Positions 4,497 through 9,094 of a DNA stretch of 64,000 nucleotides are shown here, in pieces. The DNA is from a bacterium (GTDB taxonomy: Bacteria > JAAXHH01): NCBI GenBank assembly GCA_965225915.1, contig OZ245326.1:3634057-3698056 (forward strand), written 5' to 3'. The notes under the pieces are model-generated. The model made no database searches. It was not told where the DNA came from and was given only the letters and a program-made list of their open reading frames with translations. Made by a program: the position numbers and the translations under genes. Position 1 is the stretch's first letter; every line of letters begins with the position of its first letter.

Positions 4497-5504
4497 TTAA
4501 AACGGCAGCGGTACGTCCAGTCGCTCGCTCATTTCTCGCACAGTTTGCTGTTCGATCTCACCGAATCGGATTCCCTGCTTCCTGTGAAGGGCCATGCGTT
4601 GTTCTTCTATCGCTCCGGGGAGCAGTGCTTCGTCATAGCCCGGCATGGGCTCAAATGATTCCCGCACGTCCTTCACGAAACGGTCTACCTCTCCGCGAAA
4701 GTCTTCTTCAGGAATCACCGTCTCGATATGTATGGCCAGAACCATACCGCCATGGTTCGCTGCCGGCCACCGTTCCTGAACCTCGTCGGCCTCTGGCAGC
4801 GCGGCTCCTGCCAGGGCACATCCCAGCAGCGTTGCCACTGCCCCGTAGCCAATGCTCTTAAAGAAGGCGGCCGGTATGCGGGACAGAAGATCGTCAAATT
4901 CAGGTGATTTCTGATAGTCAGCCAAAATGCGGGTAGCTACGTCCTGTACCACGGGAGGCTCATTGCACGCCGGGATGCCGAAACAGAGCGGCGGGTTGCC
5001 GAAGTAGCCGATCTGCGGTTTAGGATCCTGGCCGCGGGCGTTTCCCATATTGCGGTAGCCCTGGACCGAGAACCCGATGCATCCAGCTTCCATGCACATA
5101 CGGGTGTAGTGGCCAGCAGAACCGTAATGACCGATATGACGGACAAGCCCCATGCCCATCCCTGTTTCACGGGCCTTTGCGATCGCGCTTTCGGTTGCCT
5201 CGACCATGGGCCAGTACCCGAGTGTTCCGTCGCCGTCGACGACAACTGATGTGGGGGATTCCGAGATGACCCGCACATTGGGACGGGGGTTACTGCCGCC
5301 CTCGGCGAAGGTGCGCGTGTAGCCCGATGCCGCCCTGACACCGTGGCTGCGAACGCCCCTCATGTCGGAATTGACGAGCAGTCGACTGATCAGCGCTGCG
5401 TGGCAGTTGGATAATCCCACTTTTTCGAAACAGGCTGTCGTAAAACCCAGCAATTCGTTCTCATGAACGTGGATGTATTTTTCCGGCGGTCGATTCATCA
5501 CCAT
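4497..5504 (-). CDS. Ldh_2 family (malate/L-sulfolactate/ureidoglycolate-type) dehydrogenase
   Basis: DMRGVRSHG, VDGDGTLG, HYGSAGHY, GNPP and LPG motifs. Confidence 0.85.
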   Translation of the reverse strand: MVMNRPPEKYIHVHENELLGFTTACFEKVGLSNCHAALISRLLVNSDMRGVRSHGVRAASGYTRTFAEGGSNPRPNVRVISESPTSVVVDGDGTLGYWPMVEATESAIAKARETGMGMGLVRHIGHYGSAGHYTRMCMEAGCIGFSVQGYRNMGNARGQDPKPQIGYFGNPPLCFGIPACNEPPVVQDVATRILADYQKSPEFDDLLSRIPAAFFKSIGYGAVATLLGCALAGAALPEADEVQERWPAANHGGMVLAIHIETVIPEEDFRGEVDRFVKDVRESFEPMPGYDEALLPGAIEEQRMALHRKQGIRFGEIEQQTVREMSERLDVPLPF

Positions 5505-5575
5505 TCCTTAGGGTATGCCTATCGGCGACTGAACAGAGGAGTCTGCTACATGAGTGGACTGAAATCAGTCCGGGG

Positions 5576-6301
5576 TCATACTACCATGGGCGTCTGCAGC
5601 ACCGTGAGTCCCATGTCGATGTACTTGTCTCGTTCCGATGGGTCCAGGAGTGCCAGGCTGACCGCGACCGAAGTTCCTTCCATCTCCCTGGCGACATGCT
5701 TGACGCATTCTTCAACCGTACGGAAGGGCGGATTATGGTATCGTTCGATGTCGAAAAGCAGGTCGTTGGGACCGAAGGTGAGCACATCCACGCCATTCAG
5801 TGCCAGATTACGGCAGTTGATTACGGCGTCAACCGATTCGAGTTGCAGCCACAGTACGCCTGTTTCATTCCACCAGGCCGCGTATTCGAGGCGATTGGAA
5901 CGATCCCGGATGCCGTGGCGCGCGCTTCCACCCCAGCTTCTTCCACCGAACTGTGGATAATAAAAGAAATGGATCGCTTCTCTCACCGTGTCTTCCTGCC
6001 TGACTTCAGGCACGAGGATTCCCGCGGGTCCCAGATCGAGATAGTTGCCGATCAGGTAGGTGTGCCGGGTGTGTTTTATCCGCAGGATCACCGGCACGCC
6101 CAGCGCTTCAGCGGATGCACAGAAGGAAACGATGCGATCCTCGTTCTGGGTTCCGTGCTGGCAGTCGACATTGAAGAAATCGACCTTCCCTTTCTGTACC
6201 ATCTCTTCCAGGTCGTCCATGCCGGCATCCATGGAGGCGCCAACACCATTCAAGATTTCACCGTTTCGGATGCGATATTTCAGCGAAGTCGGCTCACCCA
6301 T
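5576..6301 (-). CDS. HpcH/HpaI aldolase family protein
   Basis: VDCQH, YLDLGPAGILVPEV, YYPQFGGRSWG, QLES and FGPNDL motifs; GGAG RBS before ATG 6301. Confidence 0.85.
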   Translation of the reverse strand: MGEPTSLKYRIRNGEILNGVGASMDAGMDDLEEMVQKGKVDFFNVDCQHGTQNEDRIVSFCASAEALGVPVILRIKHTRHTYLIGNYLDLGPAGILVPEVRQEDTVREAIHFFYYPQFGGRSWGGSARHGIRDRSNRLEYAAWWNETGVLWLQLESVDAVINCRNLALNGVDVLTFGPNDLLFDIERYHNPPFRTVEECVKHVAREMEGTSVAVSLALLDPSERDKYIDMGLTVLQTPMVV

Positions 6302-6324
6302 TACGAGGTCTCCCTTCCATTCCG

Positions 6325-7068
6325 TTACACTTTCACAAATACTTGCAGTTGTACCGGCGTATCCACCCGGATGACTGCCGAGGGATGTCGATGCATGGTC
6401 CGTTCCAGGCGGCGCCTGTCCGCGACAGGCAGGTGCGCCTTGTCCCATCGATCAGCCCTGTACAGGTCGAATATCGCCAGGCTCTCAATGTAGTACCTGA
6501 AAACGAAATCAGTGTAAAAGTTCGTGACGAGTTTGCGGTCCCTGACGGCCTCCGCCATGATCCGGTCCGCGAAATGAAAGTCGACATAGTCCCGGGCCAA
6601 AGTACCCACCAGGGTTTCCTCTTCCTCCACCAGGCAGAGAACCTGCTGCCTTGCACGACGGCGATTACCCAGGCTGACCGGGAAGTACGGACGAATATCG
6701 ACGACCCGCCCTCCGGGCTTCAACACGCGACCGGCTTCGAGAAGGGCATGCCCCATGCCCTCTTGTTTTACTCATCACAAAGACCAGGAAAAAAGCGCCA
6801 GGTCGAAACTGCGATCCTGAAACGGTAACCTGGAAGCGTCCGCCACGGCGAACCGGGCGATGTCATCCAGCCGCTTCCGGGCATGGGCACGCCGCAGGTC
6901 TTCGCCGGACAGGTCGACCCCGACGACCGAGTGTACCCAATCCCTGATTCTGTTCGATAGGCGGCCATCGCCGCAACCGATATCGATCACGCGCGCGCCG
7001 GCGAAAGGTACATGCTGCATGAGCAGCCGCGTTTCTCGCCGTTCCGGATCAATCCTGACTCCCTTCAT
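6325..7068 (-). CDS. Class I SAM-dependent methyltransferase, putative double-selenocysteine (UU) selenoprotein
   Basis: IDIGCGDG motif I, then LPFQDRSFDLALFSWSL-TGA-TGA-VKQEGMGHALLEAGRVLKPGG in one continuous frame; stop codons at 6777-6775 and 6774-6772; SECIS-like hairpin downstream; GGAGG RBS before ATG 7068. Confidence 0.8.
6741..6762 (-). promoter_or_regulatory. Candidate bacterial SECIS element
   Basis: mRNA after UGAUGA reads GUAAAACAAG-AGGGCAUG-GGG-CAUGCCCU-U: 8-bp perfect stem with a G-only loop starting 18 nt after the second UGA. Confidence 0.7.
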
Positions 7069-7082
7069 TCCGGCCTCCCATC

Positions 7083-8096
7083 TCAATGTTGAATGTCCAA
7101 TCCAGACGCGTCTTCGATTTCAGCCCAATTCCCCGTGTCCTTCGAGTGTTCGATGGCGAGTCCGGTAAGATAGAGCTGCGCAGCCATCTTGCCGTCGGTC
7201 CGGTTCGGCGTGCCGTTCTCTACCGCGTCCAGGAACTCGGTGACACTCTCCGCCTCGCCGGGCCAGCCGCCCACGACAGGCATCGCCGGCTCTACTGTGA
7301 TCAACTCACCTTCCGGTTTGACCTTCGTTCGCAACTGTATCGTATTTTTGAAATAGTCAACGGTCAGGTCACCTTCGTCACCGGTCACCTCTATCGTGGT
7401 CTCCATTTGGTCGACCGAGTTAATATTCAGGTGGATCGTACCCCAGATTCCGTCGTAATCGAATTGGGCCAGGCTGTGGTGCTGCCGCCTGCCTTCCCGC
7501 CCGTTGCCATCCATGACGAGGACACGTGAGGGAGACCGGCCAATTATGCTGTTCAGCCCGTCCACGTACCAGGGACCCAGGTGGTGGGCGAGGCACAGGT
7601 CGGGTCCCCCAAATTCCGCCCAGTTGCTCCGCAATTTCAGGTGCACAGCCTGCATGTTACCGATTGCGCCCTGCCGCAACAATTCGGCGGCGCGATGCAC
7701 GACCGTAGCGAAACCGATCTCCAGATCGCCGTGGGTGATCTGTTCGGCGGCGACCAGCCGCATCAGCATCTTCCGTATGCCAATGGGACAATCGGAGAGC
7801 GGCGGCTCGTAATAGGCAGCGATTCCTGCGTCGAGGACGGCGTTCATGGCTGCTTCATGGATAGGATCGGGTATGGCCATCATGACGGCGTCAAGAGCGG
7901 GACCGTCCAGCAACGCCTCGAATCCACCGTAGATTTTAACATCCGGGCCCAGTTCTTCTCGGATTCTGTCCTGTGAAGCCTCGCTGAATGCCGCCGCGGA
8001 CACGATCCGGACCCGGTCATGCTGCCGAAGAGCGGGCACGAAAGCCAGCCGGGTCCAACCGCCGTAACCGATCAAGCCTACACGTATTTCGGACAT
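7083..8096 (-). CDS. Gfo/Idh/MocA family oxidoreductase
   Basis: VGLIGYGGW Rossmann motif, LDAVMMAIPDPIH, and EPP at the EKP position. Confidence 0.85.
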   Translation of the reverse strand: MSEIRVGLIGYGGWTRLAFVPALRQHDRVRIVSAAAFSEASQDRIREELGPDVKIYGGFEALLDGPALDAVMMAIPDPIHEAAMNAVLDAGIAAYYEPPLSDCPIGIRKMLMRLVAAEQITHGDLEIGFATVVHRAAELLRQGAIGNMQAVHLKLRSNWAEFGGPDLCLAHHLGPWYVDGLNSIIGRSPSRVLVMDGNGREGRRQHHSLAQFDYDGIWGTIHLNINSVDQMETTIEVTGDEGDLTVDYFKNTIQLRTKVKPEGELITVEPAMPVVGGWPGEAESVTEFLDAVENGTPNRTDGKMAAQLYLTGLAIEHSKDTGNWAEIEDASGLDIQH

Positions 8097-8294
8097 GATT
8101 CGCCTTTCCACTGGTTACATATCGTTTCACTACCGGTATCGGTTGAGGTATATTAGGACAATGAAAACCGCCTCATATCGGTAAGGCAAGAACTAAGTAT
8201 ATCGAGATCAACGCACGAATGCGAGGATTGCTGCACATGAATTAATCCCGGCCTCATACCGGTCAGGCTCACACAACAGGTGCCGGAGATAAGA

Positions 8295-9094
8295 ATGTCC
8301 ATCCTGAGACTGCTCGTTTTCATTTCCATTTCAATGGCGGCCGGCCATGCGGCAGGCCAGGTAAATATCGAGGCGCTGCGCCGGGATGCTCGTTCCACGG
8401 GGTTTTCAGGCGCCTTGGCCCTCAACCTGGAGATACATACAGGCAATACGGACCTGAAGGAAATCGGGCTCGAGGGCCGGCTGGATTACAACCACCCCCG
8501 GGTCAACACGTTCGTGCTGGCGCGAAATGACTTCGGTTGGGAACTGGGGGAGCGTTTCGCCGATGAAGGGTTGATTCATCTGAGACAGCACTATCCGCTG
8601 CGCGGCCGCATAGGTCTCGAGGTTTTCGCCCAGTACAATTATGATACCAGTTACCTGCTTGACACCCGCGTGCTGGCCGGTGGAGGAATTCGATTCGGTC
8701 TGATCGAAACCGGCGTTTTCCAACTCTGGGAAGGGGCTTCAGCGTTCCTGGAACACGAACGGCTGGGCGATTTGCCCGATGGTGGGAGTCATCCCGACCG
8801 GGCAACCGTCGGCCGGTGGAGTCACTACCTGTCGTCCCGCCTTGCCGTCAACGATCGCGTAGTCTCCACGTGTACGGTCTATTTTCAACCGCTGTGGGAT
8901 TCCATTGGCGATACACGTGTCCTCGGAGAACTGAGAACGGATTGGCCGTCACTTTCTAGGAGAATCTCGAAGTCGATCTGGCGGGGCCGCTCGTGTTGGC
9001 ATTGAATTTCGTCATGCGCTACGACAGCCGACCGCCGGATGGCGTCAGTAAGCTGGATACCGTGCTGGAGAACGGATTGGCCGTCACTTTCTAG
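8295..9094 (+). pseudogene. DUF481-like outer-membrane beta-barrel, frameshifted by a 29-bp internal insertion
   Basis: Signal peptide then QVNIE...GNTD; alternating beta-strands; removing 8933-8961 restores the frame to ...YDSRPPDGVSKLDTVLENGLAVTF* with a terminal Phe. Confidence 0.7.

Follow-up and report, generated by a model that had tools for sequence, protein, structure and literature searches.

Evidence for a vicinal selenocysteine pair in a class I methyltransferase gene with two adjacent in-frame UGA codons

A methyltransferase gene with two adjacent in-frame UGA codons very probably encodes a selenoprotein with a vicinal Sec-Sec pair, both UGAs being decoded as selenocysteine. The gene lies on a 64,000-nucleotide stretch of bacterial DNA, hereafter the window (Table 1). 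Our confidence in this reading is high, and it rests on comparative evidence only; selenium in the protein has not been shown directly. We propose the following mechanism: SelB and tRNA-Sec would decode both adjacent UGAs (6777-6772) as selenocysteine; a single SECIS hairpin within the coding sequence (6742-6762) would direct both insertions, the same hairpin serving the codons in turn; and the Sec98-Sec99 pair so formed would sit in the loop right after strand beta-4. The original prediction, made from the sequence of the window, had inferred two consecutive selenocysteines at this place, and conservation, exchange with cysteine, the hairpin and the decoding machinery all support that inference.

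The gene and its reading frame

Two open reading frames on the minus strand, 6775-7086 and 6325-6756, share one frame and are interrupted only by TGA at 6777-6775 and TGA at 6774-6772. These coordinates reproduce those first given for the pair of frames, and the junction quoted with them, running from TCC TGG to GCC CTT across TGA TGA, is present letter for letter. Reading TGA as U yields a continuous protein with a likely start at ATG 7068-7066 and a Sec motif of L-U-U-V. From that ATG to TAA 6327-6325 the frame carries no lesion besides the UGA pair, and Pfam Methyltransf_11 (PF08241) spans the junction, covering residues 34-129 of P0001, the 253-residue read-through product numbered from TTG 7086 (E 1.7e-20, 73.9 bits against a threshold of 21.2). 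Frame and domain match thus agree with the earlier description of a joined 247-residue class I SAM methyltransferase free of other damage. In the SAM-binding motif, residues I30, G31, G33 and G35 are invariant, C32 and D34 reach 90% conservation or more (alignment A2), and a purine-rich motif (GGAGG, GGGAG and the like) precedes the ATG in most of 30 orthologues.

Both gene halves are under purifying selection, since dN/dS relative to the window's gene (Nei-Gojobori) is only 0.07-0.20 over codons 1-97, before the pair, and 0.16-0.29 over codons 112-247, after it, with dS near 1. The possibility that sense codons lie behind an assembly error had been raised with the original prediction; independent assemblies keep TGATGA. 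One contig from a separate study covers the whole of 6200-7200 and differs at three positions, all outside the pair and the hairpin. An RNA-library contig (X20) covers 6644-6893 with 27 differences, and the 24 that are listed all lie outside 6741-6767 and 6770-6786; since such a library may contain DNA, this contig does not show transcription. Judged from its sequence, 6325-7068 is one intact, functional gene for a methyltransferase of 247 residues.

Table 1. Positions in the window of the methyltransferase gene, its predicted elements and its neighbours
Feature	Positions	Strand	Remarks
Whole gene	6325..7068	minus	247 codons + TAA; class I SAM-dependent methyltransferase; predicted Sec at residues 98 and 99
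Shine-Dalgarno-like GGGAGG	7074..7079	minus	5 nt before ATG 7068-7066
SAM-binding motif I, D-I-G-C-G-D-G, residues 29-35	6964..6984	minus	from the read-through translation
UGA-1, predicted Sec98	6775..6777	minus	TGA in 31/31 orthologues; over 80 loci TGA 73, TGY (Cys) 7
UGA-2, predicted Sec99	6772..6774	minus	TGA in 31/31 orthologues; over 80 loci TGA 68, TGY (Cys) 12
Putative SECIS hairpin	6742..6762	minus	5' arm 6754-6762, loop GGG 6751-6753, 3' arm 6742-6750; also encodes E-G-M-G-H-A-L
Zone without synonymous variation, codons 102-111	6736..6765	minus	from synonymous entropy
Upstream neighbour, Gfo/Idh/MocA oxidoreductase	7083..8111	minus	ends with TGA 7085-7083, used as stop
Downstream neighbour, HpcH/HpaI aldolase family	5576..6301	minus	
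Next downstream gene, Ldh_2 (malate/L-lactate dehydrogenase family)	4497..5504	minus	

The UGA pair, its hairpin and the decoding machinery

Orthologues were sought, with stops read through, in 60 genomes, namely the window's own and 59 relatives. They were found in 30 relatives (25 of 26 in the genus, two in the family and three in the order), and each match holds two TGAs. With the window's gene included, the order-level set numbers 31 orthologues. TGATGA is in frame and at a single alignment column in every one, even in those of only 38-45% identity, and the surrounding residues read S-[WC]-S-[LY]-U-U-V. The true stop codons of the 30 orthologues vary (TAA 18, TAG 9, TGA 3); such drift is how real stops behave, and the internal pair, which lacks it, does not behave as a stop. 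The codon after the pair always specifies Val and varies synonymously (GTA, GTG, GTC, GTT), as expected of a translated codon. In the protein database the close relatives appear only as 143-residue C-terminal pieces (P0002-P0033), which means that annotation pipelines have cut the gene. Among full-length homologues, the nearest (P0034-P0043, at 26-30% identity) have S-W-S-L-C-C at the UU column, and more distant methyltransferases read L-H-H, L-H-L or L-H-W.

A wider scan with one genome per species gave 80 loci: 17 close orthologues, several of them in genomes already counted in the order-level set, and 63 others. The 63 come from metagenome-assembled genomes (MAGs) labelled Chloroflexota, Armatimonadota, Eisenbacteria, Dormibacterota, Actinomycetota, Acidobacteriota or unclassified, together with three archaeal ones (two Thermoplasmata and one Thaumarchaeota). 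The pair reads UU in 64 loci, UC in nine, CU in four and CC in three; at least one TGA is present in 77 of the 80, and TAA or TAG never occurs at either position. A maximum-likelihood tree of 79 rows, which omits L113, a duplicate of L112, and the truncated L115 and retains both dicodon columns (2 of 245, with U coded as a gap and C as a letter), requires at least nine changes among the four states. The UC state arises at least five times, and one clade passes from UU through CU to CC. Each of the two positions thus swaps with Cys independently, the classic signature of a selenocysteine codon, and on this comparison both UGA codons are selenocysteine/cysteine positions. The check proposed at the outset, that homologues should carry TGA-TGA, a single TGA beside TGY in either order, or Cys-Cys at this column, was met in every form.

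Downstream of the pair, the original prediction had described a perfect 8-bp stem with a GGG loop 18-21 nt from the UGAs. We find it there with an additional basal G-U pair: the eight Watson-Crick pairs enclose the GGG loop, the minimum free energy is -12.9 to -13.5 kcal/mol, and the distance from UGA to loop start is 21 nt for UGA-1 and 18 nt for UGA-2. The consensus bacterial SECIS model quoted in PMC13188914, a 2026 review, asks for a loop of 3-9 nt with a G in its first two positions, a stem of 4-16 bp, a UGA-to-loop distance of 16-37 nt and a free energy of at most -7.5 kcal/mol. The hairpin passes all four of the model's criteria, and the suggested check for a bacterial SECIS is thereby satisfied. 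Rfam holds no RNA family that matches in 6600-6900; three lncRNA matches lie far below their gathering scores. The stability of the hairpin is unremarkable (z -0.28 for an 81-nt stretch; 68 of 200 shuffles fold as well in this G+C-rich context), and it is conservation, not stability, that marks it as more than chance.

Synonymous entropy is zero at codons 102-111, against a gene mean of 0.87 bits over 168 codons (23 same-length orthologues). Most lineages have a G-U-N loop; in the window's genus it reads G-G-G. The stem also encodes the peptide G-M-(G/V)-H-A, and protein constraint could explain part of the conservation. In an alignment of the dicodon and the next 51 nt, with 78 distinct sequences, 90.9% of the helix cells are paired, against 28.6-54.7% with slid partners, and the five core pairs are never unpaired. 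Four stem pairs have changed on both sides, a count reached by none of 500 shuffles. By two other measures, the share of paired cells and the covariation score, the helix does no better than the shuffle control (366 and 273 of 500 shuffles, respectively, do as well), since the stem hardly varies; the double changes amount to only seven cells. G-C has become A-U within the stem in L126, L127 and L146 and at its base in L056, and in L104, L115 and L132 AUG...CAU is replaced by GCC...CGC, ACC...CGU or AUC...CGU with the stem kept. All three CC loci lack both the hairpin and the peptide, and the peptide is missing from the Cys-Cys proteins P0034-P0043 as well; the peptide is thus dispensable for the enzyme and imposed by the RNA. 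On this comparative evidence the hairpin is selected as RNA. The position of the hairpin is unchanged in the UC and CU forms, so the same spacing works for a UGA at either codon; in the UU forms, we infer from this, a single element serves the two UGAs.

The original prediction would have failed had the genome lacked the Sec machinery. The source genome, a single contig of 3.70 Mb, holds selA (491.6 bits), selB (314.7 bits), selD (266.1 bits) and, just downstream of selB, tRNA-Sec (70.6 bits), all above their curated cut-offs. Among relatives within the order, selA passes its cut-off in all 22 genomes searched, including one without the methyltransferase (G012). Outside the order it was found in 7/7 genomes with U-forms and in 0/3 with CC-forms, genome completeness not being given; the sample includes an unpublished genome (G068). 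By comparison, therefore, the U-forms occur together with the Sec machinery. No Sec-type formate dehydrogenase was found in the source genome, where FdhA-like matches have no internal stops. A crude whole-genome read-through scan yielded 30 candidates, of which ten were examined, and no other selenoprotein gene; its GC3 filter was so strict that even the target gene was not recovered, and the scan carries little weight. In four of the ten (L150, L151, L152 and L156) Pfam matches indicate a real stop, L150 and L151 each holding neighbouring genes in one frame; the other six have no family match. Two consecutive SelB-dependent insertions are expected, by analogy with Escherichia coli, to be inefficient, and the yield of the UU protein may thus be low.

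Other readings of the pair fare much worse. The UGAs might be read through without selenocysteine, either because the genetic code varies here or because a suppressor or near-cognate tRNA inserts Trp, Cys or Gly, the hairpin being a mere stimulator. Hairpins downstream of stop codons can indeed stimulate read-through in other systems, and there are no selenium data for the UU protein. However, this genome uses TGA as a normal stop, since the upstream gene ends in TGA at 7085-7083, and three of the 30 orthologues themselves end in TGA. Relatives have Cys at the aligned positions and neither Trp nor Gly, and selA follows the U-forms and not the CC-forms in the genomes outside the order. The hairpin, moreover, fits a SelB-type model, its loop opening with G followed by G or U. 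We regard read-through without selenocysteine as very unlikely.

Slightly less credible still is a split gene, in which TGA TGA would be a tandem stop and the C-terminal half would be re-initiated at AUG 6756-6754 in the hairpin, giving a two-piece methyltransferase. Public records do annotate the 143-residue C-terminal frame alone, and nearly all U-forms have an AUG 15 nt downstream of the stops. Yet the Cys-Cys relatives are single chains, which also answers the concern, raised with the original prediction, that the halves might occur elsewhere as separate genes; forms with only one of the two UGAs exist; and the 15-nt spacer is always in frame, with a synonymously variable first codon. Neither TAA nor TAG has entered the pair in the order or in the wider loci, while true stops drift. 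In L104, L115 and L132 the methionine codon is lost and the stem is restored by compensatory changes, which argues against re-initiation at this AUG. The GAGGG ahead of the AUG is separated from it by a single nucleotide and stands too near to serve as a ribosome-binding site, and in the AlphaFold2 model the break would fall inside the Rossmann fold. Finally, two in-frame stops ordinarily mark a dead gene, but a pseudogene with two chance nonsense changes, or an assembly or sequencing artefact, is already contradicted by the sequence data, with identical codons in 31/31 orthologues and in many phyla, dN/dS of 0.07-0.29 on both sides of the pair, no further lesions and agreement with contigs from other studies.

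The pair in the fold and its possible function

The AlphaFold2 model (30-row alignment) shows one compact fold with pLDDT 88.3 and pTM 0.84. Strand beta-4 comprises residues 88-94, the Sec pair lies in the next loop and a helix begins at 102, in agreement with the original placement of the UGAs right after beta-4. In class I methyltransferases the loop after beta-4 borders the SAM methyl group and the substrate. Foldseek places the model in a Rossmann-like fold, with E of about 1e-14 to TleD, RebM and SpnF; its neighbours are the small-molecule class I methyltransferases TleD, SpnF, RebM, YcgJ and geranyl diphosphate C-methyltransferase, at TM 0.5-0.6. The fold search gave only such generic small-molecule methyltransferases and no substrate lead, and an Atlas look-up of the Cys-Cys homologue P0034 led to generic methyltransferase clusters.

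The gene neighbourhood does not name a substrate. A Gfo/Idh/MocA gene, the methyltransferase gene and an HpcH aldolase gene are adjacent in 36/36 genus-level loci; many of L070-L086 come from the same genomes as L029-L052. The neighbours are instead FA_hydroxylase, PAP2 and a P-type ATPase in G030 and G031, Zn-ADH and an alpha/beta hydrolase in G029 and an Exo_endo_phos protein in G028. Zn-ADH is the family met most often among the 98 ORFs that flank 52 wider loci, with eight. No partner gene is conserved across lineages in the genus loci, G028-G031 or the 52 wider loci, and no arsenic-resistance genes stand beside the methyltransferase gene in the loci examined. Neither the neighbourhood nor the fold gives specific support to the metalloid binding or methyl carrying proposed for the pair.

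We consider two kinds of function. First, the Sec pair may hold a thiophilic substrate, a metalloid or chalcogen, beside the SAM methyl group. This is the role we favour, by inference, although it accounts for clearly less than half of the functional possibilities; the conserved Cys32 of motif I would possibly be a further ligand of such a substrate. Second, the pair may not be a substrate clamp at all and may act as a catalytic nucleophile, a transient Se-methyl carrier or a redox switch through an eight-membered diselenide ring. Nucleophilic catalysis or an Se-methyl relay alone is inferred to be nearly as likely as substrate holding, and the whole group of such roles falls only a little short of an even chance. 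The position after beta-4 matches motif IV of class I methyltransferases, and the motif IV Cys of cytosine-5 methyltransferases covalently activates carbon for methylation. Several fold neighbours (TleD, geranyl diphosphate C-methyltransferase and RebM) methylate carbon or oxygen, and TleD has S-L-C-H aligned with the S-L-U-U of our methyltransferase. NAD(P)-dependent dehydrogenases are frequent neighbours as well, both the Gfo/Idh/MocA gene in the genus and Zn-ADH, in the wider flanks and in G029. Against the catalytic, carrier or redox roles, no neighbour is conserved across lineages, and nothing separates such chemistries from metalloid binding.

Taken to its full extent, the vicinal Sec-Sec reading would make this an uncatalogued, multi-phylum selenoenzyme family whose active site is the first natural case of adjacent UGAs recoded through a single bacterial SECIS, with the RNA fixing G-M-(G/V)-H-A in the protein. 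A diselenol clamp, perhaps with Cys32, would hold As, Se, Te or Hg against the SAM methyl group and so define a new class of metalloid methyltransferase. This combined proposal is tentative and, as a whole, rather unlikely to hold in every part.

Several consequences reach beyond this gene. The UU, UC and CU versions, with one hairpin at a fixed position, form a natural experiment indicating that one bacterial SECIS can serve a UGA at two neighbouring codons, and the set gives a direct test of SelB reloading between consecutive insertions. The UU family occurs in at least six bacterial phyla and is split in two by gene callers; since public records hold only the 143-residue tail, selenoproteome counts miss it. 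The joint loss of hairpin and peptide in the Cys-Cys forms shows clearly how the structure of an RNA can dictate the sequence of a protein. The proposed vicinal diselenol next to the methyl group of SAM is also a candidate site for metalloid or chalcogen methylation.

Comparison with known families

The UU family is unlisted in the catalogues examined, NCBIfam 20.0 and Table 1 of PMC13188914. The methyltransferase passes no NCBIfam 20.0 model. In Table 1 of the review, adjacent selenocysteines are absent from the 119 prokaryotic selenoprotein families listed, and a vicinal diselenol beside a SAM methyl group is not among their motifs. Among the papers listed in literature searches on consecutive UGA codons, on adjacent, tandem or vicinal selenocysteine, on SECIS methyltransferases (judged by title or abstract), on double selenoproteins and on CpaM, we found no description of an adjacent-Sec methyltransferase family; Haft and Tolstoy 2025, Haft and Gwadz 2023 and supplements were outside the scope of that search. 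Passages of PMC10418091 on methyl-selenium metabolism show no link to the UU family, and passages of PMC1287953 and PMC1242214 contain nothing relevant to it.

The closest named selenoprotein in kind is MduS (methyltransferase domain-containing double selenoprotein), which likewise combines a class I methyltransferase domain of the PF13649 type with two selenocysteines. The original prediction had mentioned a family of this name: the family does exist (NF045649), but the UU protein is not a member of it. It reaches 29.7 bits where membership requires 380, the match being confined to the generic domain (model positions 44-146 of 338), and the Cys-Cys homologue P0034 scores 48.9 bits. The MduS model has 338 positions against 247 residues in the UU protein, and its two selenocysteines stand in a CxxU motif according to Table 1 of PMC13188914, in place of an adjacent UU. 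For seven of seven diverse family members the best-scoring named NCBIfam model is CpaM (corrinoid protein-associated methyltransferase, NF043040), at 59-76 bits over the N-terminal methyltransferase core only; the window's protein reaches 51.7 bits against a cut-off of 180.

The Cys-Cys members (P0034-P0043; L109, L137 and L149) are nearer. They share the length, the N-terminal R-I-D-P-E motif, the E-I-G-C-G-D-G-R-L motif, the S-W-S-L context and 26-30% identity, and differ in having Cys-Cys for Sec-Sec, without the hairpin and without G-M-(G/V)-H-A. They are annotated only as 'class I SAM-dependent methyltransferase'; L109, L137 and L149 lie in archaeal genomes in which selA was not found. 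Other selenoproteins in Table 1 of PMC13188914, with UxxU, UxxxxU or CU motifs, also bring two chalcogen residues close together and depend on bacterial SECIS decoding, and several are linked to mercury or organometallic chemistry.

Membership of the arsenite methyltransferase family ArsM was rejected for the UU protein (NF008823, 25.2 bits against 263), as were the ArsM fusions NF041536 (37.4 against 575 bits) and NF041537 (47 against 510 bits), and solved ArsM chains match the UU-family profile only at E of about 1e-6 to 1e-7. The selenocysteine-containing ArsM has a UxxG motif in Table 1 of PMC13188914, unlike the adjacent UU. The selenocysteine-containing arsenite methyltransferases nevertheless offer the best analogy for a possible mode of action: they are SAM enzymes in which a Sec or Cys near the site of methyl transfer binds the thiophilic metalloid.

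Gene neighbourhood of the UU methyltransferase within the genus

The methyltransferase gene with the in-frame TGA pair lies in a row of four genes; a divergently placed ORF beside the row is possibly an outer-membrane protein. The Gfo/Idh/MocA oxidoreductase, the methyltransferase and the HpcH/HpaI aldolase are contiguous in all 36 of the 36 genus-level loci, and the methyltransferase is less conserved (71-88% identity) than the neighbouring genes (77-92%).

Features of the window and of the single contig (C1) of its genome (G000)
Feature	Location	Strand	Remark
Four head-to-tail genes: Gfo/Idh/MocA oxidoreductase, methyltransferase, HpcH/HpaI aldolase, Ldh_2 dehydrogenase	window 4497-8111	minus	
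ORF, divergently placed	window 8280-9005	plus	weak DUF481 match, E 2.1e-6
selB and tRNA-Sec / selA region	G000:C1:450163-452282 and 466396-467526		outside window
selD match	G000:C1:2984787-2985701		outside window

In locus L058 (G027:C381, a contig of 2.5 kb), the N-terminal part is a separate match piece, residues 7-47 being followed by 91-250; this split points to either a frameshift or a misassembly, and the TGATGA and the hairpin, here with a GUG loop, are undamaged. Three further loci, L037 (G019), L041 (G024) and L046 (G015), were scored with three TGA codons in the read-through search. The third TGA is in the same frame, two codons upstream of the start ATG, and appears to be the stop codon of the upstream gene, not a third selenocysteine.

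Selenocysteine machinery

On the contig of the window's own genome, the tRNA-Sec gene is ~0.9 kb downstream of selB, and selA is ~14 kb from this pair. The selD match sits within an open frame of 743 residues without an internal stop; because this frame far exceeds the 311 positions of the model, it suggests a fusion with a further domain. A Sec-type FdhA was sought in the same genome and was not found. Among the 26 genomes searched in the genus, only G012 is without the UU methyltransferase (best match E 8.3e-10), and despite this absence it retains selA (502.5 bits).

Neighbourhoods in other lineages

Outside the genus, the only recurrent neighbour family is the Zn-dependent alcohol dehydrogenase, with ADH_N in 8 of the 98 flanking ORFs, a tally that does not state which ORFs matched. 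The Chloroflexota-type loci L089, L093, L097, L098, L100, L111, L121, L128 and L067 have an ORF of ~340 residues immediately upstream of the methyltransferase gene and in the same orientation; in genome G029 this upstream ORF is a Zn-dependent alcohol dehydrogenase. In two order-level relatives (L065 in G030 and L066 in G031), the methyltransferase gene directly follows a gene of the FA_hydroxylase family, and its flanks hold one PAP2 gene and one gene for a P-type ATPase of ~725 residues; these surroundings are unlike those in the window.
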